This document shows, piece by piece, positions 7,647-49,058 of a stretch of 64,000 nt of DNA. Source of the DNA: Candidatus Dojkabacteria bacterium (GTDB lineage Bacteria > Patescibacteriota > Dojkabacteria > GCA-002793355). Both the position numbers and the translations under genes were made by a program. Below the pieces are notes generated by a model that saw nothing but the letters and a program-made list of their open reading frames with translations, ran no database searches and had not been told where the DNA came from. The first letter of the stretch is position 1, and each line of letters opens with the position of its first letter. The stretch spans positions 960,221-1,024,220 of the forward strand of contig CP129477.1 of the NCBI GenBank assembly GCA_030583825.1, given 5' to 3'.

Positions 7647-8636
7647 ATGAAACTAGTCGTCTATATGCCTGCACATAACGAAGAGGCAACTATAGGTCTT
7701 GTAATTGATAAAATTACAAATGTTTTTCATTCAGAATATATTGCGCAACATTTTTCAGAAACGGAAATTGTTGTTCTTAATGATAACTCAACAGATAAAA
7801 CAAAAGCATTAGCGCAAGAAAAAGGCGCAATTGTCTTTGATATTCGTGGTGAAAGCCGCGGTGTCGGTCGTGTTATCCGCCTTGGATTGGAAAAACTTTT
7901 GACTTTAAAGCCAGATGTCGCAGTAGGAATTGATGCAGACGATCAGTTTGATCCGAACGATATTCCACGATTGGTTGCTCCAATTGTTGAAGGAAAAGCC
8001 GATATGGTGACAGGAACAAAGTTTCAGGATAAAAAGAATCCTCCGGCAGGAATCTCTAAAGTAAAGCTTTGGGGTAACTATGTTGTCACAGGATTAGTAA
8101 ACTTCTTGCTTAAGACGAATTTTACCGACGTTTCATGTGGATTTCGTGCATATAGCCGTGAAGCATTACTTCAGATGAATATCTGGGGTGATCGCACCTA
8201 CGTTCAGGAAGCATTTCTCGACTTCTACTACAAAGGAATGACAATTAAGGAAGTTCCTATTAAAGCAGTCTATTTTAAAGATAGAAAATCACGCGTTTTC
8301 CGATTTGGTGGTGGAATTTTCAATTACGCAATTAAGTCATTGATGATTATGTTTACCGCAATGCGCGACTACAACCCGTTCAACTTTTTTGGGTCACTCG
8401 CAACATTCTTTATTACATTGTCACTATTCCCTGGACTATTCTTGGTAGGTCACTATTTCTTTGTTGGAAGTTTCTCACCATATATTTTCCTTGGATTCAT
8501 TGCCGCAATGCTTTTTGGTATCGGAATGTTCCTTCACTTGATTGCTCTTCTTGCTGATATGTTGGCACGAATGAGAATGAACCAGGAAAAATTGATTTAT
8601 CAATTACGAAAGCAAGCAATGAATTCTCAGCAATAA
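7647..8636 (+). CDS. Family 2 glycosyltransferase, DPM1/GtrB-like, with C-terminal TM helices
   Basis: N-terminal GT-A domain (PAHNEE...LNDNSTD...DADDQFDP) and DxD. The C-terminal hydrophobic helices are typical of polyprenyl-phosphate sugar transferases. Confidence 0.8.
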   Translation: MKLVVYMPAHNEEATIGLVIDKITNVFHSEYIAQHFSETEIVVLNDNSTDKTKALAQEKGAIVFDIRGESRGVGRVIRLGLEKLLTLKPDVAVGIDADDQFDPNDIPRLVAPIVEGKADMVTGTKFQDKKNPPAGISKVKLWGNYVVTGLVNFLLKTNFTDVSCGFRAYSREALLQMNIWGDRTYVQEAFLDFYYKGMTIKEVPIKAVYFKDRKSRVFRFGGGIFNYAIKSLMIMFTAMRDYNPFNFFGSLATFFITLSLFPGLFLVGHYFFVGSFSPYIFLGFIAAMLFGIGMFLHLIALLADMLARMRMNQEKLIYQLRKQAMNSQQ

Positions 8637-8664
8637 GCTGATGAATAAATAAAGATTAAAAGCC

Positions 8665-11070
8665 ATGAACAAGCCTCGACTTCTCATAACTGCCTCAACA
8701 TTTCCGAGGTGGGCGAATGACAAGATTCCAACGTTCATGTATGAGCTTGCACGTCAATTAACCAAAGATTACGATGTTCATGTGCTTGCACCACACTTCA
8801 AGGGCGCAAAAACTAACGAAAATATGGATGGAATTAATGTCCATCGTTTTCGTTACGGCTTTGATAGCTGGGAAATACTTGCGTATGGTGGAGGAGTCGT
8901 AAACAATCTCGAAAAAAATCCGTTTGCACTACTCTCTTTGCCACTGTATATTCTCTCTTCTTTATTTAGTCTGCTGTATTTACAGTGGAAGTATAAATTT
9001 CAGGTAATGAATATTCACTGGTTTGTTCCGATGGGTGTTCTTGCAATCCTTTTAAAGCCATTGTTAGGTAGCAAAATTGTTGTTACGTCTCATGGTGGGG
9101 ATGTCTTTGCAGTACGAAAACAGAAAGCATTATCGCTGTTTCCAATGAAGAAAATTATCTCGTATGTTATAAAGAATGCCGACCATGTGACTCTCGTAAG
9201 CTCTGGTGTTCAGGAATATCTTTCGGAAAATTTTCCAGCGTATGATCCAGGAAAAACATCGGTTGTTCCGATGGGAATTGATACAAATCAGTTTACGCCG
9301 GTAAAGCACGAGGCAACAGAAACTTCACGTATACTTTTTGTCGGCCGACTTGTTGAAAAGAAAGGGGTGAATTACCTTATTGAAGCAGCTAAAATTCTTA
9401 AAGAAAAGAACCTTTCATTTCATATTGATATTGTTGGTGATGGCCCGCTTCGTCCAGATTATGAAACACTTGCAGAAAAATTGAATGTTACGGATAACAT
9501 TACATTCCACGGATTTGTTGTTAATACAGAAGTTCCAGGATATTTACAACGTAGTTCACTATTTGCCGGGCCTTCGGTCGTTGCTAAAAGTGGAGACCAG
9601 GAAGGCTTGCCTGTCACGTTTATGGAAGCAATGGCAACAGGTATACCTGTTGTCGTTAGTGATACTCCGGGTGTTAAAGATCTTGTTACTTCTGACTATG
9701 ACGGAATTGTTGTTCCGCAGTATGATTCTGTAGCGCTCGCTGCAGGATTAGAAAAATTACTCGCAGACGCAACGTTACGTAAAACGTTCTCGGAGCGCGC
9801 AAGACAAAAAGCTCTCGCATTCGATTGGCCAAAAATTGCCGCGCAGTTTACAGAGATCTACGAAAAAGTTTCCCGACCATCTTTACTTATTGTTGCATCT
9901 ACCTTTCCGCGATGGAAAAATGACACAATCTCGAACTTTGTGTACGCTCTTGCCAAGAATTTAAGTACTACATTTAATGTTCATATTCTTGCACCACACC
10001 ATAAAGATGCAAAGACTTATGAGGTTATGGAAGGCATGCAAGTCCATCGTTTTGTATACTTTATTCCAAAATATGAACGCTTGGCATACGGAGGCGGTGC
10101 GGTAAACAATATGAAAAAATCAAGGCTAATTCCATTGCTTGTTCCGTTTTACTTGGTGAGCAATTTATTTGCAATGATTGGTTTACAGCTTAAGTACAGA
10201 TATAACATTGTAAATGTTCACTGGATTCTTCCCTCAGGTTTTCTTGCGGCGTTAATCAAACCGCTTTTCAAATTCAGGCTAGTACTGACATCCCACGGTG
10301 GAGATATTTTTGGATTAAAAGGTATGGCAGTCTGGAAAATTCTTGGACTTGAACGGTTTGCCAAGTTTATTGTTAATCGGGCACAAGCTATTACGGCTGT
10401 TTCAAGCGCGCTTGAAGAAGAAATTATTTCTATTGGTGGTATTGCAACGAAGGACAAAATTTCAGTTCTACCAATGGGAATATATGTTGATCAGTTTTAC
10501 AGACAAAATCGTAAAATGCGTCAGTTAAGCAAAAATACAAAAACAAAATTTATCTTTGTAGGACGCCATGCTCAAGAAAAATCTCTTACTACATTGCTCG
10601 ATGCCTTAAAAATCCTGAAAGAGAAGGGGTATAATTTTTCAGCAACAATAGCTGGCGATGGCCCGGAAAAGATGACATTAGAACAAAAAGCAAAAGACTT
10701 AGGAATCGCATCTGACATTGTTTTTCCAGGGTATGTGCCGAACACAGAAGTCGCTGACCTTTTTTATAAACATGATATTCTCTTAAATTGCTCAGTTCGG
10801 GAAGGATTGCCAACAGTATTTATGGAAGCAATGGCAACTGGCCTACCAATTATCGTAACGAATACGCAGGGAATTTCCGATTTAGTAGCTGATCACCGCA
10901 ATGGTCTTGTTGTTGGCATGAAAGATCCAGAAGCAATTGCAAAGGCATGTGAAGAATTGATTGAAAATGAGACACTATACAAAACTATTTCTGCAAATGC
11001 ATTAAAAACAGCGTATAAATATGATTGGAAAATTATTTCAAAGCAATATGAAGATGTTCTCCTTCCTTAA
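8665..11070 (+). CDS. Fused tandem family-1 (GT4-type, GT-B fold) glycosyltransferase with two complete GT domains
   Basis: Two homologous halves. Half one spans 1-400 (ITASTFPRW...HVLAPHFKGAK ... EGLPVTFMEAMATGIPVV). Half two spans 401-801 (IVASTFPRW...HILAPHHKDAK ... EGLPTVFMEAMATGLPII). Each half has the E-x7-E nucleotide-sugar motif. Confidence 0.8.
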   Translation: MNKPRLLITASTFPRWANDKIPTFMYELARQLTKDYDVHVLAPHFKGAKTNENMDGINVHRFRYGFDSWEILAYGGGVVNNLEKNPFALLSLPLYILSSLFSLLYLQWKYKFQVMNIHWFVPMGVLAILLKPLLGSKIVVTSHGGDVFAVRKQKALSLFPMKKIISYVIKNADHVTLVSSGVQEYLSENFPAYDPGKTSVVPMGIDTNQFTPVKHEATETSRILFVGRLVEKKGVNYLIEAAKILKEKNLSFHIDIVGDGPLRPDYETLAEKLNVTDNITFHGFVVNTEVPGYLQRSSLFAGPSVVAKSGDQEGLPVTFMEAMATGIPVVVSDTPGVKDLVTSDYDGIVVPQYDSVALAAGLEKLLADATLRKTFSERARQKALAFDWPKIAAQFTEIYEKVSRPSLLIVASTFPRWKNDTISNFVYALAKNLSTTFNVHILAPHHKDAKTYEVMEGMQVHRFVYFIPKYERLAYGGGAVNNMKKSRLIPLLVPFYLVSNLFAMIGLQLKYRYNIVNVHWILPSGFLAALIKPLFKFRLVLTSHGGDIFGLKGMAVWKILGLERFAKFIVNRAQAITAVSSALEEEIISIGGIATKDKISVLPMGIYVDQFYRQNRKMRQLSKNTKTKFIFVGRHAQEKSLTTLLDALKILKEKGYNFSATIAGDGPEKMTLEQKAKDLGIASDIVFPGYVPNTEVADLFYKHDILLNCSVREGLPTVFMEAMATGLPIIVTNTQGISDLVADHRNGLVVGMKDPEAIAKACEELIENETLYKTISANALKTAYKYDWKIISKQYEDVLLP

Positions 11071-12283
11071 GAGGTTTGACTCAGCAAAAATTTATTCGAT
11101 TATTGCACAGGTTCTTGCTCTTGGTATTGGATACGTCGCGCAGTTGATTCTGTTTGTATTACTTACAGAAAAAGAGTCATTTAGTCATTTTCAGCTGACA
11201 AACTTTACGACAAACTTACTTGGACTTTTTGCCGGTTCGGTTATTCCAACACTCTTTTCTGCAAAAATAAGTGCACTGAGTGAAAAAGACGCAAAAAGCG
11301 AGCTACAGAAAATAGTTCTTCCATATATTGTCGTTCTTCTTGGTCAGACTGCATTATTGTATGTGCTATTTGTTGGGTTAAATATTGCTCAAGGAATTGA
11401 TTCATACCGATTATTGCTTTTTATTCTCTCAAGTGTGCAGGTACTTGCGTTTTCTGTAATGAACCTTTTCCATATGTACTTTATAGGCCGACGCGATTTT
11501 AAGACATTTGCAATCTTCTATACATTGTACGGTGCGATTAAATCGTTTTTTGTACTTGCTGCAGCATTTATGTTTAACAATGCTGAAGCAATCGTTGTTG
11601 GTATTTCGCTTGCATCAGTGCTCCATTCGCTCATTATTTTGTGGTACTTAAAGGTCAAACCGGAGATCACTATTTCTTTTGAGGCACTTATTCCATATAA
11701 AAAGAGATTTTTGGATCAACTTATTGCAAATCTCGTAATGTTTGGGATCTTAAATATTTCTTTTATTATTGCGTACTTCAAAATTCGCACAGACTACGAC
11801 ACATTTAACCTGATTACCCTTGCTCAACCAATTGGACTTGTTCCCTATTATGTCGTGTCATCACTAGGAAATGTATATATGATTGATTTTGCAAATGGAT
11901 CAAAGAAAGCAACAGATATTGTAAAAATCATTACCCGGATGTTTGCATTGCTTATTGTCTTTTCAATTCTCACTCTTGTTGCAGCTGCTGTTGTTTTTAC
12001 CATTTTTAACAGAGCTCCTGTTGGTCTTTTGCTACAATATGTCATGATTATGTTTCCTTCAACGATGGCAATTTCACTCATCAGTGTGCTTTTATCAATT
12101 TACCAAGGGCTAGGAGAACTATATAGACTGAGAGCTATTGTACTTGTGCTTATTCCCCTGTATCTTTTAATATCGCTTCTGCCTGTTACAACAGAGCAAC
12201 TTATTCTTATTACAGGTGGTGTATATCTTGGTATTAGCGTGTTTATTACATTACTTTCGCGAAAGATCTCATGGAAACCGTAA
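11021..12283 (+). CDS. Polytopic membrane protein, putative oligosaccharide flippase (Wzx/MOP-like)
   Basis: About 12 predicted TM helices over 420 aa, embedded in a glycosyltransferase cluster. The 5' end overlaps the upstream gene, so an alternative start lies near 11048. Confidence 0.4.
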   Translation: MIGKLFQSNMKMFSFLKRFDSAKIYSIIAQVLALGIGYVAQLILFVLLTEKESFSHFQLTNFTTNLLGLFAGSVIPTLFSAKISALSEKDAKSELQKIVLPYIVVLLGQTALLYVLFVGLNIAQGIDSYRLLLFILSSVQVLAFSVMNLFHMYFIGRRDFKTFAIFYTLYGAIKSFFVLAAAFMFNNAEAIVVGISLASVLHSLIILWYLKVKPEITISFEALIPYKKRFLDQLIANLVMFGILNISFIIAYFKIRTDYDTFNLITLAQPIGLVPYYVVSSLGNVYMIDFANGSKKATDIVKIITRMFALLIVFSILTLVAAAVVFTIFNRAPVGLLLQYVMIMFPSTMAISLISVLLSIYQGLGELYRLRAIVLVLIPLYLLISLLPVTTEQLILITGGVYLGISVFITLLSRKISWKP

Positions 12284-13827
12284 AAACCTTATTACAATCG
12301 GCAAAGAGCTTTTTCGCGAATAATGTCGCAGCAATACTCGTGGCACTCTGTTTTGTTGCAATTTTATGGTCAACAACATTTGTATCTGAATTACCTTTTA
12401 AAAGCTATGGAGATGTTTGGGCTCACCTCGCGTTTGTGGAAGAGCTAAAAAAGCCTCTCGAAGAAGTAGGAGATCCATACTTTAACACTGGAAGTCGCGA
12501 CCCTCACAATGGAATTTATCCCGTCGCAATTGCAAAGATCAGCCAGGCAACAGGAGTTTCACATATTTTTCTTATGCAAATCTTTGGAATTATCAGCTTT
12601 GTCGCAGTCTATTTAACAGCGATTGTTGCCTACAGAACCTTTTTCCCTGATAGAAAAAATAAGCACATTGATTCTATTGTTTTAGGTATAGTCATGTTCT
12701 TAGGATGGGAAAGCTATCGTTTGTCGTATGCGGGGTATTTCTCACTTGCAGATATTGCTATTGGAATTATGTTCCCGCATTTATTTGCACTAGCATTGTT
12801 TAATCTTGCTATTACAGCTTATTACATTGTTCTAAAGCGTCAGAAAGAGAAAAAACCTATTCAAAAAACAATTGTTATTCAACTGATCGTTGCTTTTTTA
12901 AGTGCAGCAATTTTATTAACACACGTTATTACCGGAGTTATTTTAATGTATACATTCCTCGTATTTACTGGTTACTACTTCTTGTTTGAATATAAGCTCC
13001 GTCCACCGTTTGTATTTTTCTTAAATGCAATTATCCCTTTGTTGGCTGTAATTCTCTGTCTTTTCTGGCCATTTTATAACTTTTTAGATCCATTCACTAA
13101 ATTGCAAACAATTCACACTGAATCACCAATTTCCTCAATTTTCGAAATGAGAGACTGGTTTGCAGTTGCAGCAATTATGCTTGTTGGGGTATTTAGCGCT
13201 CTTGTCGCTAAAAATAGACTTATTACGATATGGTTTTTCTCTGTATTATTTGTTCTTGCCTCTTACCTCTACCCTGTTCGAATCTCTTCATATTGGAGAT
13301 TTTTCCCGGTTACATTGTTATCTCTCTCTTTTTTAATGACCTATTGGACATCATCGCTAAACCGCACAATGAGAACATTTATTCTCTTTATGATGCTGCT
13401 TTTCGGCTTCTCCAGTTTTGTTAACAAAGTTGACACTATTGGATATCGTCAAGCCGTAACTCCTGTGTCATTTGATTTTCTAAAAGAGGTTCCGTCGGAC
13501 AAAATGATTCTTTCTGACCCGGAAACTTCGTACTTATTTAGCGGAATTACTGGCCATGCAGTGCTTGTTGTAAATAAAACTCACTGGAACCCAGCAAACC
13601 ACGTTATTTCAGAAGAAAGATATAAAGATTCGCTCGCGTTCTGGCGGGAAAATGACGAAACTGGGTCACCGTACGTAATTGATAAATACAATATTGAGTA
13701 CGTTTTGATCAATAAAAAGATTTATAGAAACTTTAACGAATATGCTGTTATGCTTGGCTCAAAGTATAAAATGAAAGAATTATATCAGGATAAAAGTTAT
13801 CTCTTACTTCAGATTATTCAGGATTAA
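12271..13827 (+). CDS. Polytopic membrane protein, putative GT-C-type glycosyltransferase or polymerase
   Basis: More than 10 hydrophobic helices with an acidic first extracytoplasmic loop (VSELPFKSYGDVWAHLAFVEELKKPLEE). Sits inside the glycan cluster. Confidence 0.35.
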   Translation: METVKTLLQSAKSFFANNVAAILVALCFVAILWSTTFVSELPFKSYGDVWAHLAFVEELKKPLEEVGDPYFNTGSRDPHNGIYPVAIAKISQATGVSHIFLMQIFGIISFVAVYLTAIVAYRTFFPDRKNKHIDSIVLGIVMFLGWESYRLSYAGYFSLADIAIGIMFPHLFALALFNLAITAYYIVLKRQKEKKPIQKTIVIQLIVAFLSAAILLTHVITGVILMYTFLVFTGYYFLFEYKLRPPFVFFLNAIIPLLAVILCLFWPFYNFLDPFTKLQTIHTESPISSIFEMRDWFAVAAIMLVGVFSALVAKNRLITIWFFSVLFVLASYLYPVRISSYWRFFPVTLLSLSFLMTYWTSSLNRTMRTFILFMMLLFGFSSFVNKVDTIGYRQAVTPVSFDFLKEVPSDKMILSDPETSYLFSGITGHAVLVVNKTHWNPANHVISEERYKDSLAFWRENDETGSPYVIDKYNIEYVLINKKIYRNFNEYAVMLGSKYKMKELYQDKSYLLLQIIQD

Positions 13828-13829
13828 TT

Positions 13830-15017
13830 ATGAATATACTTATTGTTACAAGAGACACAAAACATGGCATTGGAACAACTGTGAAAAATCTTGTGTGGCA
13901 GTTTGAATCTCGTGCAGATGTTAATAAAGTAACAGTTATTGCACCAGAAACATTTGAGGTATTTACTGATAAAGTAAACTTTAAAATTGCTCCACTAAAA
14001 GGACAGTACTTCTTTACAAAAGAAATTACATTTGGAATTTCTGCAGCAAAAGCAATGAAAGAAGCATTTTCAGAGGCACAATACGATATTGTCCACTTGC
14101 ATTCGAATATCATTAATTACGGCGTTATTCCACGCTTAGGAGCAAAGATTGTAAGTACTTTTCAGGGAACGCATAAGGCATTGATGAATATGACTGTTCC
14201 AGTGGTGAGTACTTTTCACAATACTCACAAAGCTTCAACATTGATGGCAAATGTTAACGGATTAAAGTATCGAATTGGAAAATACCTTCATATTCCGTTT
14301 ATGAAGCTTGATTCAATGCGTGTTCATAACAGTAAAATTGTTACTTGTGTGAGTACTTATACTCTCGACGAAGTCAAAAAAGAGCGAGAGAATGACACAG
14401 AAGCATTTGTTTTTGTGCCCAATGGTGTAAAAACAGATGTATATCACAAAAAGGCAAGCTTTGATAAAGCAGCATTTTGGAAAGAAAAATACGGAATTAC
14501 CGATGACACAAAGAAACTTTTATATATTGGGCGTTTAGAGTCAGGAAAAGGACTTGATCACCTCGTTGCAGCAGTTGCAGAGATGGAAAATACAACGCTT
14601 ATTTTTGTTGGTGACGGTGCAGAACGAGAAAATCTTGAAAAGATTCCATTTGTAAAATGCCTTGGCTATGTCGGTAGTGAATCAGACAAAAATGATCTAT
14701 ACAATGCAGCAGATTTATTTGTATTCCCATCTCTGTATGAAAATTTTCCTCTTGTTATTGGTGAAGCAATGGCAGCCGGAACTCCAATGATCGCAACAAA
14801 AGTCGGTATGGTTCCTTACATGCTTCAGGACGATGAAGATGTTTTGGTAGAGCCAGGAAATTCTGAAGCAATGCATCAAAAAATACTTGCACTCCTTTCA
14901 AATAAAGAGAAATATACCCAAGAATCAATTGAAAATCGGCAGTTTGCTGAGAAAAACCTTAGCTGGTCAGTTGTTGCCGATACATATTTAAACTTATATA
15001 AGAAAATGACACCATGA
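13830..15017 (+). CDS. Family-1 (GT4) glycosyltransferase
   Basis: The C-terminal domain has GRLESGKG, LIFVGDG, FVFPSLYENFPLVIGEAMAAGTPMIATKVG. A short internal duplication is present (VSTFQGTHKA / VSTFHNTHKA). Confidence 0.85.
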   Translation: MNILIVTRDTKHGIGTTVKNLVWQFESRADVNKVTVIAPETFEVFTDKVNFKIAPLKGQYFFTKEITFGISAAKAMKEAFSEAQYDIVHLHSNIINYGVIPRLGAKIVSTFQGTHKALMNMTVPVVSTFHNTHKASTLMANVNGLKYRIGKYLHIPFMKLDSMRVHNSKIVTCVSTYTLDEVKKERENDTEAFVFVPNGVKTDVYHKKASFDKAAFWKEKYGITDDTKKLLYIGRLESGKGLDHLVAAVAEMENTTLIFVGDGAERENLEKIPFVKCLGYVGSESDKNDLYNAADLFVFPSLYENFPLVIGEAMAAGTPMIATKVGMVPYMLQDDEDVLVEPGNSEAMHQKILALLSNKEKYTQESIENRQFAEKNLSWSVVADTYLNLYKKMTP

Positions 15018-16483
15018 CTAAAGAGAAACTCTTAAAAATATTGCAAGTGGCTCTTCCTTACGTCCTGATTGCAATTCCCATTATTCTTGGAAGCATCATT
15101 TTGTTTCGATTTGTTGCACCGTTTGGGCTTGCTGTTTCTTACGACTTTAACATTGCCAATAATGCCGAGTTATTTGGCCGTATTCGCGATGTCGAACGAG
15201 ATGCATATGCAGAGGTTACAGATAGTTCTTTAACAATTAAAGATAGGTTTTCTGTCACAAAGGAAAAAGTTGAATTCAGTATCGTACCTGTGGGGCAAGA
15301 TTTCAAAGAAATTAAAGTTCGAATGAAACTTGGTAATACTCCAACGCAAACCACTTTAATGCAGGTACTAGACTTTGAGTATAATCGCCAGGAAAGCTTT
15401 TTACTTCGAAACAACGTTATTAAAGAGCTTGGAGCACCAAAATTTGCTTACGACGACTTTGACGTATGGAGCTTTACCTCGGCAATCCAAACGAAAGAAG
15501 ACTTGGACAATAAAATAAATGAGTTAAGCGTTACTTCCGGTGCTCTTTCAGTCTGTACGCTTGATAACGATTTCTACCATGATCCAGTATTTGAAAGTGT
15601 GACTGCTGTAAACGATACTCAGCTCTATGCTCCTGTTTTCCGTGGTTCACATGTGTTTAGCGTATATGTTGGTCGCGATAGAAAACTGTATTTTGGATTC
15701 ACTAAAAGAGACTTGAACTGGTACTCAGGAACAGATGAAATGATTATTATCCTGCGACGCCAGGGTAAAGTTATTCGCCAGGAACAAATTAATGACGATG
15801 GAATCTACGATGGCACCCAAGGACGTGTCACTGGTGTTGATCAGCCATATCTTTTGGAACTGAACAACTTAGAAGCCGGTGTGTATGAAATTGCAATCGA
15901 AACATCAGAAGACTCATTGATTACCAAGGTTCACTCAAAGAACCCAAAGGTTGTTGTGAACCGCGATATGTTCCTTGCTAATAATGGAATTTACGGAACT
16001 TTTCCAAAAGATGTTTCTATTTTCACTTATTCTCCGCGTGTGTTCTTCTCTTTTTACCACGACACCTTCCTTAACAATATGACAGTAAATGGACAGAACT
16101 TTGTTCCGGCACAATTGCAAAACTTTGAATCACTGGAATTGCAATTAAACACTCTTAACCGTGTTGATATTCCATCTGCCGACTTACGAGTCGCATCAAA
16201 GGACTACTATGCATTTACTCGTGAAAGCTACTTTAAACCGACTATTTTTGACAATGTAAATTGTGTCTCATTTCCAAAGGATGTTGCCGAAAAGCAGGAC
16301 ATTTTAGTTGTAAAGAATATGGCTGAAGACAAAGGAAACGGGTTTTACGAAATGACAATTCCGTATAAAAAAGGCTATGTTGGTGCAGAAGGTCGAATTT
16401 ACTTTACTTTCTACAATCCGGGACTTGGCATTGATGAATCACGAGTAGAAATAGAATATTTTCAAGTTGAATTAATTCGCTAA
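15014..16483 (+). CDS. Hypothetical membrane-anchored extracytoplasmic protein
   Basis: A single N-terminal TM helix followed by a 450-aa domain with no recognisable motifs. Start overlaps the upstream stop (ATGA). Confidence 0.5.
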   Translation: MTKEKLLKILQVALPYVLIAIPIILGSIILFRFVAPFGLAVSYDFNIANNAELFGRIRDVERDAYAEVTDSSLTIKDRFSVTKEKVEFSIVPVGQDFKEIKVRMKLGNTPTQTTLMQVLDFEYNRQESFLLRNNVIKELGAPKFAYDDFDVWSFTSAIQTKEDLDNKINELSVTSGALSVCTLDNDFYHDPVFESVTAVNDTQLYAPVFRGSHVFSVYVGRDRKLYFGFTKRDLNWYSGTDEMIIILRRQGKVIRQEQINDDGIYDGTQGRVTGVDQPYLLELNNLEAGVYEIAIETSEDSLITKVHSKNPKVVVNRDMFLANNGIYGTFPKDVSIFTYSPRVFFSFYHDTFLNNMTVNGQNFVPAQLQNFESLELQLNTLNRVDIPSADLRVASKDYYAFTRESYFKPTIFDNVNCVSFPKDVAEKQDILVVKNMAEDKGNGFYEMTIPYKKGYVGAEGRIYFTFYNPGLGIDESRVEIEYFQVELIR

Positions 16484-16485
16484 TT

Positions 16486-16920
16486 ATGAAAAAGCATATT
16501 CTTTCAGGACTTCTCTTTATACTCTACTTTGGGCTGTTTCTTGTATTAAAAGTCATTAACGAAATTAGCAATAACTCCATAGAATATTTGGGAAATCTTG
16601 ATGAAGTAATGATTCTTGTGGTCTCCGCAGGTGTTGCGTATTATTTACTGTTACTTTCTTCAAAAGAAGGCCTAAAGAACGATATTCTTACTGATGCTGA
16701 TGAAAAACCAGGGATCAGTTGGAGAATTCTTGCAAGTGTCGCGTCATCAATGTTTGTTGGCTACGTCGTGTATAACAAAACACTTTTTTGGGTTGGTGGA
16801 GAAATCGTCAGTGCAGCAGCTGCGTTTTGTACATTGATTGTTGTATTTCTTTCGCTTTCAACAAAGAATGAAGAAAGCTCTTCTGATCAGCCTTCTAAAC
16901 AAGAAAAAAGTGGTAATTAA
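16486..16920 (+). CDS. Small integral membrane protein, hypothetical
   Basis: 144 aa with four hydrophobic segments and an acidic, Ser-rich C-terminal tail. Confidence 0.45.
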   Translation: MKKHILSGLLFILYFGLFLVLKVINEISNNSIEYLGNLDEVMILVVSAGVAYYLLLLSSKEGLKNDILTDADEKPGISWRILASVASSMFVGYVVYNKTLFWVGGEIVSAAAAFCTLIVVFLSLSTKNEESSSDQPSKQEKSGN

Positions 16921-18386
16921 CGAACCCAATACACAGTTGTAGTATCTCCCACGCTCTGAAATCTATCTATTTGAACAAGTACTGGCGATCTGTACGCAGA
17001 GACTTGATACTGCAGTAATAATGGCAGAATGCTTTCCAACTTTTGAGGGCAAAGGCTTTGAGCATAGCCATCCACTACGTAATATCCTTGCGCCAACGGT
17101 AACTCGACAGTAAGATCGCAAATGTGTCCCGATCTATAATGCCTATATGCTGTCATAAGAGGAGTTGAACTCCATATTGTATAGTCCTTTTCAAATTGGC
17201 CATTCAATCGGTCTTGCCAATAATCTATACTGAGTGATGCAAGCGGAAGACTGACAAAAACCATAACAAGCTGAAAAACAACTGCAAAAATCATTAGCCT
17301 TTGCATGACTTGCTCTGCGATGAAGTTTTCCCATTCGCTACTGAGCACGATGGCAAGAAGAAATGGAATAACAAAAATAAGGTAGCGGAATGTGTCACTG
17401 GAGTTATATGTGTAAACACCTCCTAGTACCAATGCAGAAAGAATAAGGTACGGGCTCATAATTGCCCGTTTTTGCCATGAGAGATACGCTACAAGAAGTA
17501 AGAGGCCTCCACATAAAATACTGCCTAAAACAGGCGTTACAGAGCTTGATACATACCCTAGAGATGCAATCAGCACAATAATTGCCGAAAAAAGAACCAT
17601 AAAAGGAATTCCAAACTGAGAAAGAGCTGTTGTCCATTGTAAAATCTGAGCCTGATATTTTTTAGCATGTGTAATAAATGCAAGAATGAGACAAATCACA
17701 GCAAATGGAAGCAAAACATACAAAATGGCATATACTCCAGAATTTGAAATAAGTCCCATAACTATATAAAAAGTGAGCAATAGCGCGTACAAGCTATTCC
17801 TCCATAGCATATGCTGTTTTTTATTTGCAGTGTCTACAGGAATTCTTAAAAGCAGAGGAAAGATAAAGATCATTTCAGGGCGAATAAGTCCGAGAAGCAA
17901 TGCAATCACTATGCCAATTCTAAACTTTCGCATCCGTAATGCGCTCAGAAGGAAAGATAAAAGCATAAATGAAAAGTATTCTGTTGATGCGCGAGAAATC
18001 CAATAGATAATAGCTCCCGAGCTAAGAACTAAGAGAAATGCGAGTATTTGGGTCGTGTGAGTATGTTTTCGTTGTCTAAACGAAACAATAAGTGCTGTTA
18101 TACCTGCAACAAGAAACAGAATATTTATAAATGTTGTATAGGAGCCTGCCCACAGTAGTAAGGAGGTAATAAATGGCGCAAGAGGCTTTATAGAAACAAA
18201 GTAGTCAAAAGGAATAACTGCTCCATTATAGGAAATGGATTTAATAAAAAAATCCTGACTCCTCGCGATTACCGCGTAAATATAGGAATCAGGATAGAGT
18301 ATGTGGGGTTTTGGAATGCTTAGAAGTATTCCAGTGATAACAACCAATACAAGAGTTGCTAAAGAGGGGCCGTATTTCTTCAGCAC
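16917..18386 (-). CDS. Polytopic membrane protein, putative GT-C family glycosyltransferase (ArnT/PMT-like)
   Basis: 489 aa with at least 12 TM helices. A conserved-looking YPDSYIYA motif sits in the first loop. Convergent with the glycan cluster. Confidence 0.4.
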   Translation of the reverse strand: MLKKYGPSLATLVLVVITGILLSIPKPHILYPDSYIYAVIARSQDFFIKSISYNGAVIPFDYFVSIKPLAPFITSLLLWAGSYTTFINILFLVAGITALIVSFRQRKHTHTTQILAFLLVLSSGAIIYWISRASTEYFSFMLLSFLLSALRMRKFRIGIVIALLLGLIRPEMIFIFPLLLRIPVDTANKKQHMLWRNSLYALLLTFYIVMGLISNSGVYAILYVLLPFAVICLILAFITHAKKYQAQILQWTTALSQFGIPFMVLFSAIIVLIASLGYVSSSVTPVLGSILCGGLLLLVAYLSWQKRAIMSPYLILSALVLGGVYTYNSSDTFRYLIFVIPFLLAIVLSSEWENFIAEQVMQRLMIFAVVFQLVMVFVSLPLASLSIDYWQDRLNGQFEKDYTIWSSTPLMTAYRHYRSGHICDLTVELPLAQGYYVVDGYAQSLCPQKLESILPLLLQYQVSAYRSPVLVQIDRFQSVGDTTTVYWVR

Positions 18387-19769: not shown

Positions 19770-20243
19770 TTAGGCTCCTGCCTCTTGCTTTACGCGTTCG
19801 AAAACTTCCTGACCGTGGCCTTTGGGATTCACATTTTCCCAAATATGAACGACTTTTCCTTCAGGATCAACAAGGTATGTTGTACGAAGTGTTCCCATAT
19901 AGGTTCGTCCCATAAACTTCTTTTCCGCCCAGATTCCAAATGCCTGTTGCAATTGCGTACTTTCATCTGAGAGTAAAGGAAACGGGAGATTATATTTCTC
20001 TTTAAACTTTAGGTGTGATTTGATTTTATCTTTGCTGATACCGACAATCGTTGCACCAAGCTTTGTAATATCTTTATTAAAATCGCGTAATTCACACGCT
20101 TCTGTTGTACAGCCAGGGGTATCGTCTTTGGGATAAAAATACAATACGAGATACTTTCCTAGAAATTCCTTAAGTGTTACTTTATCTTCTTTTTCATTTA
20201 AAACCTCGATATTTAAGGGTATTGTCTCTCCAACTTTAATCAT
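19770..20243 (-). CDS. bcp: Peroxiredoxin Bcp (thiol peroxidase, AhpC/TSA family)
   Basis: FYPKDDTPGCTTEAC motif with the CxxxxC arrangement typical of Bcp. Length 157 aa. Confidence 0.85.
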   Translation of the reverse strand: MIKVGETIPLNIEVLNEKEDKVTLKEFLGKYLVLYFYPKDDTPGCTTEACELRDFNKDITKLGATIVGISKDKIKSHLKFKEKYNLPFPLLSDESTQLQQAFGIWAEKKFMGRTYMGTLRTTYLVDPEGKVVHIWENVNPKGHGQEVFERVKQEAGA

Positions 20244-20306: not shown

Positions 20307-21698
20307 TTACAAGGAAAACTCTTCTGTTTGGATCTGTTGTCTTCTCACTCCTTGGGACTTAAGAAGCTGTTTCATCGCCTTAATAAAGCCTTTTGGCCCA
20401 CAAATGTAATATTGGTACCCACCCAAACTTTTCTTCAGATACTTTCTTAGCATTTTTTCATCAATTCTGCCCTCTTCACAATGTTTTTCATCGCACTTCT
20501 CTTTTGTGATTGCAAAGACAATGTCGGCATCTTTTGTACCTTTCTGCTGGGAAGATTTAGCCTCATAAATACGCAGTAACTCCTCTCTAAATGGAGCATT
20601 TGTATATGTCTGTTCACTGTAGAAGAGTACTTTATCCTGCGCAACACGCTTCGACGTCTCAATAAATGGTGTAATGCCGATTCCTCCGGCTAAAAATACA
20701 ATAGGTGCATCTACTTCAAATGCAGGAGCTGTAAATACTCCGTATGGCCCATCCACAAATACTTTTTTGGGCGTTACAATTGTATCAAGCATTTTAGTGA
20801 ATTTCCCTTCTTTTTTAGGTGAAATCATAATTTGTGTACCAGAAACAATGTGCGACACAGTAAATGGGTGGCTTTCTCCTCCTCGGGATAGCTGAATATA
20901 AATAAATTGACCCGGAAATACATTTATTGGGCGTTCCAGCTCGATGGTGAATCGGTTTACTTCGGTGTTAAGGTGCTCTTTTTTGATGATAGTGCCCTTG
21001 CGTTTAAAGAATCCGAGATGATGCAATATACTCACTGCCACAATAATTGGGTAGATTGCTCCAAGCAGATACCAAAAGTATCGCAGATTTGTCGAAAGTA
21101 ATGTCGTTCCCACATTTAAACTATGCATATAGACGAGTGGAAATACTAAGTACGAAATAAAGTGAATACGTTTCCACCATCTGTAAGAGATATTTCTGCG
21201 AAACAATGCGCTGGTTATCCAAATAACGGCTACAATTGAAATAGCGATCTTTCCATACATAATATAAATGTCGTAGGGAGTCCATACTTCCGGTAAAACA
21301 AGCTGAAACCAATACGCTCCGTAGCTGATAAGCGCCATAAGCGGGTGGGCAAATACAAAAAGCATTCCCCAAATACCAATGTTTTGGTGCACCTTATTGA
21401 GCCAGACAAAATCATTTGTAAAGAACTTTGCAACAACGCGAACTCCCAAAACATATTGCCAAAATAGCATGATAAGGCCTAAAAGACCTGTGATACTCGC
21501 AAATGAGGCAAAGTAAAGCAATATCATGTCATTTAGTGCGGAGCTTTGCTCAAGTATTGGGATCGTCCAATACATAAATAATGGGACAATTGTTACGACG
21601 ATGCAAAGCACAAGAACAAGTTGCTTTATGTAGTTTTCCTGAATTCTTGACATAAATAATGCTGTCAAATTATGTATTTGCTCACGAGTCGGCAGCAA
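20307..21698 (-). CDS. NOX/ferric-reductase-family transmembrane flavocytochrome (bis-heme TM domain + FAD + NAD(P)H-binding FNR-like domain)
   Basis: The TM domain has His pairs spaced 13 and 12 residues apart (HQNIGIWGMLFVFAH; HFISYLVFPLVYMH) as in NOX/FRE. FAD motif HPFTVS, NAD motif GGIGITPF, and a C-terminal YICGP. Confidence 0.75.
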   Translation of the reverse strand: MLPTREQIHNLTALFMSRIQENYIKQLVLVLCIVVTIVPLFMYWTIPILEQSSALNDMILLYFASFASITGLLGLIMLFWQYVLGVRVVAKFFTNDFVWLNKVHQNIGIWGMLFVFAHPLMALISYGAYWFQLVLPEVWTPYDIYIMYGKIAISIVAVIWITSALFRRNISYRWWKRIHFISYLVFPLVYMHSLNVGTTLLSTNLRYFWYLLGAIYPIIVAVSILHHLGFFKRKGTIIKKEHLNTEVNRFTIELERPINVFPGQFIYIQLSRGGESHPFTVSHIVSGTQIMISPKKEGKFTKMLDTIVTPKKVFVDGPYGVFTAPAFEVDAPIVFLAGGIGITPFIETSKRVAQDKVLFYSEQTYTNAPFREELLRIYEAKSSQQKGTKDADIVFAITKEKCDEKHCEEGRIDEKMLRKYLKKSLGGYQYYICGPKGFIKAMKQLLKSQGVRRQQIQTEEFSL

Positions 21699-22578
21699 AA
21701 AGTATTCCCGGATAGCCTTCTGTTTGATATATCGTACCAGCTTCGGTAAATATAAGGTAGTTTACTTCACATACTTCTTGAATTCTATCCCAAAACACTG
21801 GAGGGGAAACAAAAAGAGCTGTGCTTGCTGTATCTGCAGATAATGCGTCTTTCCCATATGTAAATACCATTTTTATTGAAGTTACCGGTAGCTTTGATTT
21901 CTGATCAATTAAATGATGTAAGCTCTCTCCAGTATTTTTATCTTTCCATTGGCGGCGAGATGGCGATGAACACGCGATTGCGGCATGCTTTACTTGGATA
22001 GTTCCTATTACCTCTTCTTTGTCGCGAGGATTCTCAAGAAAAAACTCCCATGCTGTGCCATCTTTGTGCGTTGTTGCAAATATATCTCCGCCACCGTTTA
22101 CACAGAAAAAGTGAATATTCTTTTCTTTTAAATGACGCGCAAGTTTATCAATAAGCCAGCCTTTCCCAATCCCTCCGAGGTCAACACGTGCATCGTTACT
22201 TAGTTCTATTTTATCCTTGTCCAATCGGAGGATATATCCAGGCAAAACTTTGCCACTTTTTGTAAATGAATAATTTTCATCATAGCCAAGAGATGCGAGT
22301 GTTCCGCCAACTGCTGCTGAAAAATGTCCATCGGTAATATGGCTTATATTTGCTGAATATTGCAGCATATCATAAAGCTCTGGAGGAAAATCTTCCAAGT
22401 GCTTTTCCTGGTTTAGCCGGCCAATAAAGCTTTCAGGAATAAAGCGCGAATAGTCTTTTTCAAACTGCTTTGCAATTTGCTCAAGTTCTGTAAAAGCTTT
22501 TTGTTTATTAGTGGCGGAAATATCGTCTTCTATTGTGATCCACCAGTGTGTGCCAATTGCTTCAAACTCAAAGCTCAT
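21682..22578 (-). CDS. apbE: FAD:protein FMN transferase (ApbE family)
   Basis: DLGGIGKGWLIDK signature and ApbE-length protein. It is directly upstream of, and overlapping, the NOX-like gene. Confidence 0.85.
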   Translation of the reverse strand: MSFEFEAIGTHWWITIEDDISATNKQKAFTELEQIAKQFEKDYSRFIPESFIGRLNQEKHLEDFPPELYDMLQYSANISHITDGHFSAAVGGTLASLGYDENYSFTKSGKVLPGYILRLDKDKIELSNDARVDLGGIGKGWLIDKLARHLKEKNIHFFCVNGGGDIFATTHKDGTAWEFFLENPRDKEEVIGTIQVKHAAIACSSPSRRQWKDKNTGESLHHLIDQKSKLPVTSIKMVFTYGKDALSADTASTALFVSPPVFWDRIQEVCEVNYLIFTEAGTIYQTEGYPGILFAADS

Positions 22579-22582
22579 GCCT

Positions 22583-23080
22583 TTATAACGCCTGATCCAT
22601 AATTGATTTTAGTGCTGCAAGAAACCCAAATCCTGTCAGTGATGAGCCATTAACATTGCCAAGAGAGGTTATTTCTGTAATTTTTCGTCCATTAACACGT
22701 GACCCAATACCTTGAATAAACAATGATTGATACGTTTTACTCTTTGGATGATCTGCATTTCCAACAACTCTTGCCTGTGTTATGACATTATCCTGCAATG
22801 TCACTGTTACAGTAATTGTTTCTGATCCTGCTGGTGAATTATATCTTCCACTTGCAGTGTAGGTTCCATCTTTAAATGTTGTGCCTACAGGAACTGGGGT
22901 AACGGCAATTGTATTTTGTGGAATAATTTCTGACTCAGGAAATAGTCCATTCCCTGATGATTCTCTATTAAGAAACCCTGGGTTACCAATCATAAAGACG
23001 AGTCCGGTAATAACAATACATACGATGATAACGACTGCGGTTGTGATGATTGTTTTTTGTGACATGATATTTTCTTTCAC
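22583..23080 (-). CDS. Membrane-anchored FMN-binding domain protein (predicted ApbE flavinylation substrate)
   Basis: N-terminal TM helix and an FMN_bind-like fold. A candidate flavinylation site lies in NVNGSSLTGFG near the C-terminus, analogous to the [ST]GA[ST] motif. Confidence 0.6.
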   Translation of the reverse strand: MKENIMSQKTIITTAVVIIVCIVITGLVFMIGNPGFLNRESSGNGLFPESEIIPQNTIAVTPVPVGTTFKDGTYTASGRYNSPAGSETITVTVTLQDNVITQARVVGNADHPKSKTYQSLFIQGIGSRVNGRKITEITSLGNVNGSSLTGFGFLAALKSIMDQAL

Positions 23081-23199
23081 AGATTATCCTTTAGTATAGA
23101 GCAGCAATGTGAAACTAAATTGAAGCAACTATTATTTATTGTAACATGGGAACAAAGGAGAGAGCTAAAATGCCGAGTATTTCAACTCTCTCCATGAAA

Positions 23200-32003: not shown

Positions 32004-32555
32004 TTAGGTTTGCTGTTGCTGGTTTTGTGCGGTTTTCTTTTTGTACACAATTTGGACTAGTCCACCTTTAAGTTCTTTTACGTGGAGTAATTCAAATTCC
32101 TGGTGAAATGGTTCACCGTCAAAAAGAGTAATTCCTTTGCCGAATGCTAAGGGGTGAACATCAATGATGAGAAAGTCAACGAGATTTTCTCTTACAAAGC
32201 CGTAATTAGTTTTCCCTCCACCAACAATGAGTACATTCTTGCACCCTTTTGCAGCAAGGTAATCTAATACTTTACGAGGATCCTGGGTAAAGTACTCCAC
32301 ATTCTCATATGAGCTTACTTCGGGAGGCATACTTGTCATAACAATATTTAGCTTTAATGGAACAGGATAGAGGTCTCCCTTGTACTGTTCAAAGGTTGTT
32401 TTGCCTACGATAACGCAATCTGCGTCCTCAATTGCTTTTTCGAACTGCTCTGCATCAACCGGTGATACCCACTCCGAGTCGCCATCAAGCTTAGCAATAT
32501 AGCCATCTATACTTGTTGCATTGTAAATAGTGACTGTCATTGTTAAGTAAAGCAT
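32004..32555 (-). CDS. Dihydrofolate reductase-like / RibD C-terminal domain reductase
   Basis: SIDGYIA, VIVGKTTFE and VGGGKTNYGF motifs typical of the RibD_C/DHFR-like family. Confidence 0.7.
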   Translation of the reverse strand: MLYLTMTVTIYNATSIDGYIAKLDGDSEWVSPVDAEQFEKAIEDADCVIVGKTTFEQYKGDLYPVPLKLNIVMTSMPPEVSSYENVEYFTQDPRKVLDYLAAKGCKNVLIVGGGKTNYGFVRENLVDFLIIDVHPLAFGKGITLFDGEPFHQEFELLHVKELKGGLVQIVYKKKTAQNQQQQT

Positions 32556-48014: not shown

Positions 48015-49058
48015 ATGTTATGGTATACTTACGCCATGAACTCACACGCATATATTGTTCACACAGACGGAGGAGCACGGGGGAATCCAGGCCCAGCAGG
48101 AATAGGCTACACTATTCACTCACCAGACAAGGCTCTTCTCGCAGAGCACGGAGAAAAAATAGGGACAGCCACAAACAACGAAGCAGAATATAAAGCAATG
48201 ATACAAGCTCTTCGTGCATGCACTGAATTTTCTGAAATTAAAGAGCTAACCATCTATAGCGATAGCGAATTAATGGTTTCACAACTTACTGGAAAATATA
48301 AGGTCTCCTCTCCTACGATAAAAGAATTTTTCGGAATCGTGAAACAACTCGAATCGAAGTTTCACAAGGTGAGCTATATTCATGTGCGTCGCAATCTTAA
48401 CAAAAGGGCCGATGAACTGGTCAATGCAGCGCTTGATGGAAAAGCCATTTCAACACTTACAAAAACTTTACACACTGAAGAGAAAACAAATTCACTACCT
48501 GAATCGCTTCCTAAAAATGCAAATTTGATGTTTCACGGAAAACACATAGATGTCTATCAATGGCAACAGGAATTGTTCAATAAAGACTATACAATTTTTG
48601 AAAAATCAATTCATAAAGATTGTGTTTGTGTCATTACCACAACAAAGGAAGGGAAAATTTTACTCACTCACGAAGAACAACCATACCTTGGCGCCTATAT
48701 AAATATTCCTGGTGGCCGCTGCGAACAAAATGAATCCGCGGAAGAAACTGCTACTCGCGAATTACAAGAAGAAACAGGGTATACGAGCGATGATATAACG
48801 CTTTTTTACACATTTTCTCCAAAAGGAGATATTGAGTATACCTGCTCTATTTTTCTTGCGCGTAACGCTACCAAAAAAGCTGACCCAATTCTTGATCCTG
48901 GAGAGAAAATTACCGTTTTAGAGGTTTCTTTTGAAGAGTTTGTTGCAGCACTTCACACTGAAAACTTTAGAAACTTTCCTGTGCAATTGTGCATTTTTAA
49001 GCACTTAAGTGAAGAAGGTGGACAGAAAAAACTGAAATCTCTTTTAGGTCTTGCGTAA
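48015..49058 (+). CDS. RNase HI domain fused to a C-terminal Nudix hydrolase domain
   Basis: N-terminal RNase H DEDD residues (HTDGG, NNEAEY, YSDSELM, KRADELV). The C-terminus carries a perfect Nudix box, GGRCEQNESAEETATRELQEETGY. Confidence 0.75.
   Translation: MLWYTYAMNSHAYIVHTDGGARGNPGPAGIGYTIHSPDKALLAEHGEKIGTATNNEAEYKAMIQALRACTEFSEIKELTIYSDSELMVSQLTGKYKVSSPTIKEFFGIVKQLESKFHKVSYIHVRRNLNKRADELVNAALDGKAISTLTKTLHTEEKTNSLPESLPKNANLMFHGKHIDVYQWQQELFNKDYTIFEKSIHKDCVCVITTTKEGKILLTHEEQPYLGAYINIPGGRCEQNESAEETATRELQEETGYTSDDITLFYTFSPKGDIEYTCSIFLARNATKKADPILDPGEKITVLEVSFEEFVAALHTENFRNFPVQLCIFKHLSEEGGQKKLKSLLGLA

Follow-up and report, generated by a model that had tools for sequence, protein, structure and literature searches.

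The closest described relatives of the system considered here are known from genome surveys of flavinylation and from studies of a streptococcal oxidase. Méheust et al. (2021; PMC8238504) catalogued 1,797 MsrQ-like flavinylation clusters, mostly in Actinobacteria, defined by a gene for a PF01794 (Ferric_reduct) protein within five genes of a gene for ApbE or an FMN_bind protein. In 1,437 of these clusters the protein has a C-terminal PF00175 domain, and the electron path proposed for them is the same as the one considered below. The survey also defined NQR/RNF-like clusters in Actinobacteria and in the Candidate Phyla Radiation (CPR), which are two-subunit systems made up of an NqrB/RnfD-like protein fused to an NAD-binding domain and an FMN protein of the NqrC/RnfG type, together with ApbE, and both kinds were modelled by Huang et al. 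(2024; PMC11334425). In the NOX of Streptococcus pneumoniae (SpNOX), the outer heme is exposed and proteins are reduced directly, and Dubach et al. (2024; PMC11564096) suggested the existence of a potential protein acceptor; even in SpNOX, the physiological acceptor may be something other than O2 (PMC11564096). Here we describe a three-gene cluster of this general kind in Candidatus Dojkabacteria, on contig CP129477.1, within a stretch of 64,000 nt that is referred to as the window and within which all positions are counted.

In order of transcription, the cluster encodes an anchored protein of flavin mononucleotide (FMN)-binding type, hereafter FMNb, an ApbE-family transferase of FMN from flavin adenine dinucleotide (FAD) to protein, and an SpNOX-like flavocytochrome in which a Ferric_reduct domain is fused to an FAD/NAD(P)H dehydrogenase. 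The best-supported reading, the core of which was put forward in an earlier note on this DNA, is that electrons from cytoplasmic reduced nicotinamide adenine dinucleotide (phosphate), NAD(P)H, pass through two hemes to a flavinylated surface protein. Domains, conservation and linkage all favour it, and we assign a probability of about 0.65 to the view that the three genes form a module for NAD(P)H-driven electron export that belongs to the MsrQ-like, flavinylation-associated class. With a Ferric_reduct match of 40.4 bits, ApbE immediately upstream and PF00175 present, the cluster is, by its gene content, a member of that class, and one that uses, to judge from sequence relationships, the FMN-binding/ApbE type otherwise found in NQR/RNF-like clusters. 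The earlier note considered a NOX-family module unusual in this role, which the numbers catalogued in the survey contradict; the NOX-type flavinylation system is already known from that work, and the window provides a new example of it, not a new kind.

Organisation of the locus

All three open reading frames (ORFs) lie on the minus strand: the FMNb gene at 22583..23080 (165 aa), the ApbE gene at 21682..22578 (298 aa) and the flavocytochrome gene at 20307..21698 (463 aa). They are co-oriented and abutting or overlapping, as had been claimed: the stop of the FMN-binding gene is followed after 4 nt by the ApbE start, and the flavocytochrome gene either overlaps the ApbE gene by 17 nt, if it starts at TTG 21698, or follows it after 28 nt, if it starts at ATG 21653. 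The latter is probably the true start, which would give a protein of 448 aa beginning MSRIQ, because a homologue with 64% identity (P0052) begins alike. In public gene calls (L174, L175) the flavocytochrome is 406 aa long, which would remove its first transmembrane helix. The FMNb length of 165 aa counts from GTG 23080, and the NCBI call is 160 aa from ATG 23065. The same locus is present in several public assemblies.

The flavocytochrome

Pfam profiles match the 463-aa protein as Ferric_reduct (E-value of 3.5e-10, with a cut-off of 28 bits), FAD_binding_8 (5e-8) and NAD_binding_1 (PF00175; 5.1e-12, residues 335-443). NAD_binding_6, which the earlier note expected, found no match in the Pfam scan of this protein; NAD_binding_1 matches instead. 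The transmembrane heme domain comprises residues 1-227 (21018..21698, minus strand), as defined by alignment, hydropathy and AlphaFold, and the predicted cytoplasmic dehydrogenase domain, defined by Pfam and alignment, comprises residues 233-463 (20310..21002, minus strand) and ends in EEFSL. In the AlphaFold model (predicted local distance difference test, pLDDT, of 89.7), the heme domain consists of six long helices, at residues 5-42, 55-85, 97-126, 141-165, 172-196 and 205-227, and the candidate heme ligands are found as histidine pairs on helices 3 and 5. There are 13 residues between H104 (codon 21387..21389) and H118 (21345..21347), and 12 between H179 (21162..21164) and H192 (21123..21125). 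All four histidines are invariant on realignment with 27 homologues of 28-64% identity, and the proposed six-helix bis-heme domain is thus upheld. The proposed cofactor motifs were also found and are conserved in this alignment: within the FAD motif HPFT (277-280), H277 is present in at least 90% of the homologues and P278 is essentially invariant, the NAD(P)H motif GGIGITPF (338-345) is likewise essentially invariant, and the C-terminal CGP (433-435) is conserved.

The strongly basic loop at residues 163-175 (SALFRRNISYRWWKR), together with the basic N-terminus, puts the dehydrogenase domain on the cytoplasmic side. In the AlphaFold model the outward loops span only about 12, 14 and 8 residues, and because they are short the outer heme would be poorly shielded. 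SpNOX is the best solved relative both by sequence (8qt6, E-value of 3.5e-35) and by fold (8qta, E-value of 1.6e-20), and the model superimposes on 8qta with a TM-score of 0.74 over the whole chain. Profile comparison indicates that the membrane subunit is not a fusion of NqrB/RnfD (PF03116) with PF00175: the protein scores 4e-162 against the reductase profile and 8e-13 against the NqrB-like fusion profile, the latter only because of the shared dehydrogenase domain. A flavinylation-like motif within the flavocytochrome was also considered, and VSGT at residues 285-288 was rejected as it is not conserved; the alignment of the 27 homologues shows no conserved [S/T]GA[S/T]-like site.

The FMN-binding protein and its GSSLTG motif

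FMNb has an N-terminal transmembrane helix at about residues 11-29, which scores 2.97 on the Kyte-Doolittle scale, no lipobox, a linker modelled with low confidence and a folded domain at about residues 70-165, across which the AlphaFold pLDDT is 88-98. The 165-aa protein itself has no Pfam match, even at E<=10, and no NCBIfam match, and since these direct scans gave nothing, homology was established through family members, profile-profile comparison and fold. PF04205 (FMN_bind) matches 9 of the 18 aligned family members (best E-value of 6.9e-6), and comparison of the family profile with the canonical FMN_bind profile using hhalign yields a probability of 79% (E-value of 1.6e-5). The top Foldseek matches of the FMNb model are 8p2b, 8p2a, RnfG, 3o6u, CPE2226 and NqrC, all of them weak (E-values of 5e-3 to 1e-1), and those to 8p2a and 8p2b concern the FMN-binding domains of multi-flavinylated proteins. 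In a PDB profile search with the family, the best match was again 8p2a, at a non-significant E-value of 0.15, and it was used only for motif register. In addition, homologues of FMNb carry the name FMN-binding protein at NCBI and JGI. These lines of evidence are moderate but agree, and they suggest that the 165-aa protein belongs to the FMN_bind family. The subfamily is large, with 3,613 representatives at 50% identity (E<=1e-3). Tandem FMN-binding domains of the FMNb type also occur (P0171 and P0172, with three copies in 440 aa and seven matched stretches in 1,005 aa, respectively), and these proteins are presumably multi-flavinylated members of the subfamily.

A lipobox is present in 44 and a hydrophobic N-terminus in 146 of 193 family members; such N-termini across the family, together with the transmembrane helix of the window protein, place the FMNb domain outside the cytoplasm. 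The C-terminal motif V-x-GSSLTG-x-GF, whose core occupies residues 145-150 (22631..22648, minus strand; Ser147 codon 22640..22642) according to the family alignment, is invariant in all 18 aligned members, and among the 193 family members GSSLT occurs 173 times and GASLT 15 times. GSSLTG aligns on SGATYTS, both in the VSGATYTS of 8p2a and in that of actinomycete FMN_bind proteins, and since these two independent alignments agree, Ser147 corresponds to the FMN-bearing Thr of S-G-A-T. Relatives linked to a reductase have GGATLT (L010) or GGASLT (L173) at this position. From these alignments, Ser147 is a candidate site and the likely FMN acceptor. Thus, the anchor, the family homology and the invariant motif, with a serine at the aligned acceptor position, all bear out the earlier description of an N-terminally anchored FMN_bind-domain protein carrying NGSSLT.

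ApbE without an export signal

The 298-aa protein matches the Pfam ApbE profile at 1.2e-41 and aligns with solved ApbEs (1vrm, 4xgw and 6nxi). The conserved HviD and ADawdT of E. coli ApbE (4xgw) line up with H222 (LHHLID) and D249/T253 (SADTAST) of the window protein, residues for which the ApbE literature describes the histidine as the catalytic base and assigns Mg2+-binding roles to the aspartate and threonine. The claim that the enzyme acts on extracytoplasmic substrates assumes its secretion, and this assumption did not survive inspection: the window ApbE has no signal peptide, lipobox or hydrophobic segment, and there is no upstream start codon in its ORF. It begins MSFEFEAIGTHWW, and residues 5-12 (FEAIGTHW) already align with the first strand of E. 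coli ApbE in its mature form. Across 69 related loci, the median distance between the stop of the FMN-binding gene and position 1 of the ApbE profile is 4 codons, and none of the short N-terminal ApbE extensions in these loci is hydrophobic, which means that the missing signal is not a local annotation problem. The ApbEs of actinomycete and Chloroflexi reductase clusters are equally signal-less. In the wider set (L090-L169 and L018-L066), ApbEs of the cassette family, by which we mean the reductase-linked and NqrB/RnfD-like-linked forms in CPR, Actinobacteria and Chloroflexi, have no signal peptide or lipobox, and their presumed substrate is a lipoprotein or an anchored protein. The ApbE of locus L074 differs from the others in having a hydrophobic N-terminus.

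Linkage and co-diversification

A search from the FMN-binding protein gave 80 metagenomic loci (L090-L169), in 73 of which ApbE lies beside the FMN-binding gene; the other seven are mostly contigs too short to tell. The next gene is readable in 48 loci and encodes an NqrB/RnfD-like protein fused to an NAD-binding domain in 45 of them, a Ferric_reduct protein in two and neither in one. A second search, from the flavocytochrome, gave 80 genome loci from many phyla. In actinomycete and Chloroflexi clusters the genes occur in the order reductase, FMN_bind, ApbE, and the flavinylation motif reads D-x-[VI]-SGATYTS. The full trio with FMNb of the window type was found co-localised in other CPR genomes (L001/L002, L171, L173, L010 and L133), in varying orders and orientations.

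In a neighbour-joining tree of 62 cassette ApbEs, the eight reductase-linked sequences form one bipartition against the NqrB/RnfD-like-linked ones in 100 of 100 bootstraps. This split indicates that the flavinylation pair has co-diversified with its membrane partner and is the strongest evidence here for functional coupling. A recent partner swap, in which the FMN-binding/ApbE pair would have been taken over from NqrB-like systems, was also considered and rejected on account of the single old and well-separated clade of the reductase-linked enzymes.

Several related arrangements were encountered in the same searches. In a split of the Saccharibacteria type (L026:3953-6760, L064:5902-8410 and L074:741-3724), an FNR-like FAD/NAD protein and ApbE accompany a Ferric_reduct protein that consists of transmembrane segments only. 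In L091:5001-7008, a transmembrane-only Ferric_reduct protein of 205 aa comes after the FMN-binding gene and ApbE, and no dehydrogenase domain was found nearby; this arrangement resembles an MsrQ-type variant that draws on another electron donor. In Nomurabacteria (L008:5598-7992 and L009), the FMN-binding/ApbE pair lies between DoxX and VTT-domain proteins, and no reductase or NqrB-like partner is present in these flanks.

Proposed electron path and its alternatives

In the electron-export module as we envisage it, a hydride from NAD(P)H would be transferred to FAD bound in the cytoplasmic dehydrogenase domain, from which electrons would move singly, first to an inner and then to an outer heme b; by analogy, these hemes would be held by H104/H179 and H118/H192, respectively. 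The outer heme would then reduce an FMN that is phosphoester-bound on Ser147 of the anchored FMN-binding protein, which would have to dock on the flavocytochrome, and the flavinylated protein would in turn pass the electrons to an external acceptor. ApbE would install the FMN, taking it from FAD. Candidates for the terminal acceptor are O2, Fe(III), other soluble oxidants and a partner reductase. A fermentative CPR cell could benefit by regenerating NAD(P)+, acquiring iron or protecting its envelope. Such a module would provide a plausible exit for NAD(P)H electrons in a CPR bacterium with a genome of about 1 Mb and no respiratory chain, and it bears on the redox balance and iron supply of such cells.

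Several observations weigh against this reading. MsrQ-like flavinylation clusters as a class are known from bioinformatics only, and the proposed path presupposes a host that makes or obtains heme. Only about 20 of the 80 genome loci found with the reductase have ApbE within 6 kb. The next-closest locus beyond the near-identical ones, L170 (3647-6350), with 45% reductase identity, contains genes for an MgsA-like ATPase, a hydrolase, a transporter of the major facilitator superfamily (MFS) and the reductase, the last two separated by 43 nt, and has neither an FMN-binding nor an ApbE gene; this same synteny without the pair shows that the reductase can exist alone and that the pair was gained or lost at the site. 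The fold evidence for FMNb is, on its own, weak (Foldseek E-value of about 5e-3). The canonical flavinylation heptad is D-x-x-[S/T]-G-A-[S/T] (PMC12052999), and the window heptad, G-N-V-N-G-S-S, keeps only its glycine and acceptor serine, so that flavinylation is not assured. Finally, ApbE is predicted to be cytoplasmic, whereas its presumed substrate would be exported.

The distribution of the reductase raises the alternative that the flavocytochrome works alone, as an NAD(P)H oxidase or ferric reductase of the SpNOX type, and that the FMN-binding/ApbE pair is an unrelated neighbour. Homologues that stand alone are indeed common, with no ApbE nearby in about 60 of the 80 genome loci, nor in L170 or L172; the reductase of L170 occupies the same syntenic site without the pair, and SpNOX by itself can reduce O2, cytochrome c and, at a slow rate, iron (PMC11564096). 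However, the spacing in the window is operon-like and tight, the trio is found again, in differing gene orders, in distant CPR lineages, and the division of the ApbE tree by membrane partner is hard to explain without coupling. Moreover, in the other lineage the pair adjoins a different NAD(P)H-linked membrane protein (the 45 of 48 loci mentioned above). We therefore regard a solitary flavocytochrome as decidedly improbable.

The location of ApbE and the divergent motif bear on a second alternative, according to which ApbE does not flavinylate the 165-aa protein. The enzyme might instead have another cytoplasmic target, act as an FAD pyrophosphatase or serve flavin trafficking, and the exported protein might bind flavin non-covalently, bind another ligand or rely on a second, secreted ApbE. 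Apart from the predicted cytoplasmic location, this could be argued from the report, cited in PMC12052999, that ApbE specificity is governed by localisation, the enzyme acting where it resides (Bertsova 2014), from the departure of the window motif from the canonical heptad at two of four specified positions, and from the fact that the 165-aa protein itself misses the Pfam FMN_bind profile. Nonetheless, the invariant GSSLTG aligns exactly on the flavinylation site, where sister clusters have GAT or GAS, and in every one of the 73 loci where the neighbourhood is visible ApbE adjoins the FMN-binding gene. In addition, the flavocytochrome offers no conserved [S/T]GA[S/T]-like site as another target, and ApbE can act on short linear motifs and on serine as acceptor (PMC12052999). 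On balance, this alternative is unlikely.

FMN could reach the exported protein by flavinylation before export, by an unrecognised export route or by means of a second ApbE; a literature search found no paper that addresses a signal-less ApbE with an exported substrate in these clusters. With regard to the first route, it is tempting to speculate that throughout the cassette family the signal-less ApbE flavinylates the C-terminal GSS of the unfolded precursor in the cytoplasm, and that export and anchoring follow. This remains a tentative suggestion, which we hold to be somewhat doubtful. If true, it would make FAD export unnecessary and would represent a maturation route that has not been described for extracytoplasmic flavoproteins.

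As to the acceptor, the module might act as an assimilatory ferric reductase in which the flavinylated protein reduces extracellular or chelated Fe(III) for Fe(II) uptake. A VIT1 ferrous-iron transporter is found in 153 MsrQ-like and six NQR/RNF-like clusters (PMC8238504), and the Ferric_reduct family name and the precedent of yeast FRE proteins point in the same direction. Yet no iron transporter, Fur box or siderophore gene is found in or beside the module in the window, L001, L171, L173 or L010, and SpNOX shows very low ferric reductase activity (PMC11564096). A dedicated role in iron uptake thus has a low probability; it should be noted that it would be a special case of electron export and does not contradict it.

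Neighbouring genes and other features of the window

The earlier note also stated that a Bcp peroxiredoxin and an MFS transporter flank the module. Both genes are indeed adjacent, but they are not conserved partners, given the synteny, the hairpin described below and the arrangement in L170. The Bcp/PrxQ-type peroxiredoxin gene (19770..20243, minus strand) lies 63 nt downstream of the module, and its product matches AhpC-TSA (3e-39) and an NCBIfam thiol peroxidase model (153 bits, with a cut-off of 140); the transporter matches MFS_1 (7.8e-23). Bcp adjoins the reductase only in L001/L002 and L174/L175, and not in L170, L171, L172 or L173. As functional partners of the module, Bcp and the MFS transporter were considered and rejected, since their adjacency occurs only in close relatives and follows synteny.

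No terminator was found between the module and Bcp, and the latter is possibly co-transcribed with the module. On the other side, a terminator-like hairpin with a 15-bp stem followed by TTTGTT is located directly after the MFS stop (23157..23193, minus strand). It was identified by its match to the consensus and is likely an intrinsic terminator, which suggests that the module is transcribed apart from the MFS gene; the scanned region contains six terminator-like sites, with 4.4 expected by chance. A promoter scan found 10 sites where 13 were expected, no better than chance, and was not used.

Elsewhere in the window, the region 7647..18386 contains a block of glycosyltransferase (GT) genes, including a GT2, a double GT4 of 801 aa and another GT4, as well as large ORFs without a Pfam match (11021..12283, 12271..13827, 15014..16483 and 16917..18386), the last of which is very hydrophobic; it is probably a cell-envelope glycan locus. 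A 347-aa ORF at 48015..49058 (plus strand) encodes both an RNase H/RVT_3-like domain and a NUDIX hydrolase domain. The 183-aa protein encoded at 32004..32555 (minus strand), some 9 kb away from the module, is made up solely of the C-terminal domain of RibD, with a flavin or folate reductase-like fold; no link between it and the module has been established.

Comparison with known systems

The analogy with extracellular electron transfer in Listeria (Ndh2, EetA/EetB, FmnB and PplA), drawn in the earlier note, is one of function only. The two systems would be alike in that a surface-anchored FMN-binding protein receives its flavin from an ApbE-type enzyme and its electrons from cytoplasmic NADH. 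However, the Listeria route runs through a type II NADH dehydrogenase, a quinone and EetAB and has no hemes, and its FmnB is a secreted lipoprotein that is supplied with exported FAD; no homologue of Ndh2 or EetA/EetB was seen among the annotated ORFs of the cluster and most of the window. In the E. coli MsrPQ system (MsrQ with the flavin reductase Fre), a Ferric_reduct bis-heme protein sends electrons outward to a soluble or anchored protein partner, whereas MsrQ has no fused dehydrogenase and its partner, MsrP, is a molybdoenzyme that is not flavinylated. No MsrP homologue is present in the window cluster.

SpNOX (8qt6, 8qq7; PMC11564096, PMC11031084, PMC5676040) resembles the window flavocytochrome in its six transmembrane helices, its four histidines and its FNR-type dehydrogenase domain, as well as in the absence of regulatory domains and in short outward loops that expose the outer heme. 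Nonetheless, the identity between the two proteins is only about 21-22%, and in the Streptococcus loci (L077, L082 and L086) there is no ApbE or FMN-binding gene nearby. For relatives of SpNOX, clusters of the window type offer a candidate for the protein acceptor that was proposed for SpNOX.

With the NQR/RNF-like clusters, the window cluster shares the FMN-binding subfamily, the signal-less ApbE type, the logic of a one-way export of NAD(P)H electrons and the taxa, i.e., Actinobacteria and CPR. It differs from them in its conduit, which belongs to the heme-based Ferric_reduct type instead of the flavin-based NqrB/RnfD-like type, and in the ApbE tree the two kinds form clades of their own.

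The survey screen asked for a signal peptide or lipidation site on the product of a PF04205 or ApbE gene (PMC8238504). In the window cluster, ApbE is signal-less, and the 165-aa protein is anchored by a transmembrane helix and has neither a lipobox nor a PF04205 match. As judged from the methods of the survey, a cluster without either feature would probably have been filtered out, and such escape may contribute in part to the reported scarcity of flavinylation in CPR. If flavinylation before export proves true, clusters of this family would be missed by any screen that needs an ApbE signal peptide or a PF04205 match, and the reported CPR scarcity would be partly an artefact of detection.

Like the window cluster, the MsrQ-like clusters combine a PF01794 bis-heme protein carrying PF00175 with adjacent apbE and FMN-binding genes. 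The differences concern gene order, which is FMN-binding gene, ApbE, reductase in the window and reductase, FMN_bind, ApbE in the actinomycete and Chloroflexi examples, the CPR host, and the FMN-binding protein, which belongs to a GSSLTG subfamily instead of carrying the canonical SGATYTS and, in the window, is not detected by Pfam FMN_bind. The general view given by the surveys of 2021 and 2024 stays as it was; the window cluster adds to it a lineage and a subfamily of proteins whose sampling in those screens was probably too sparse.

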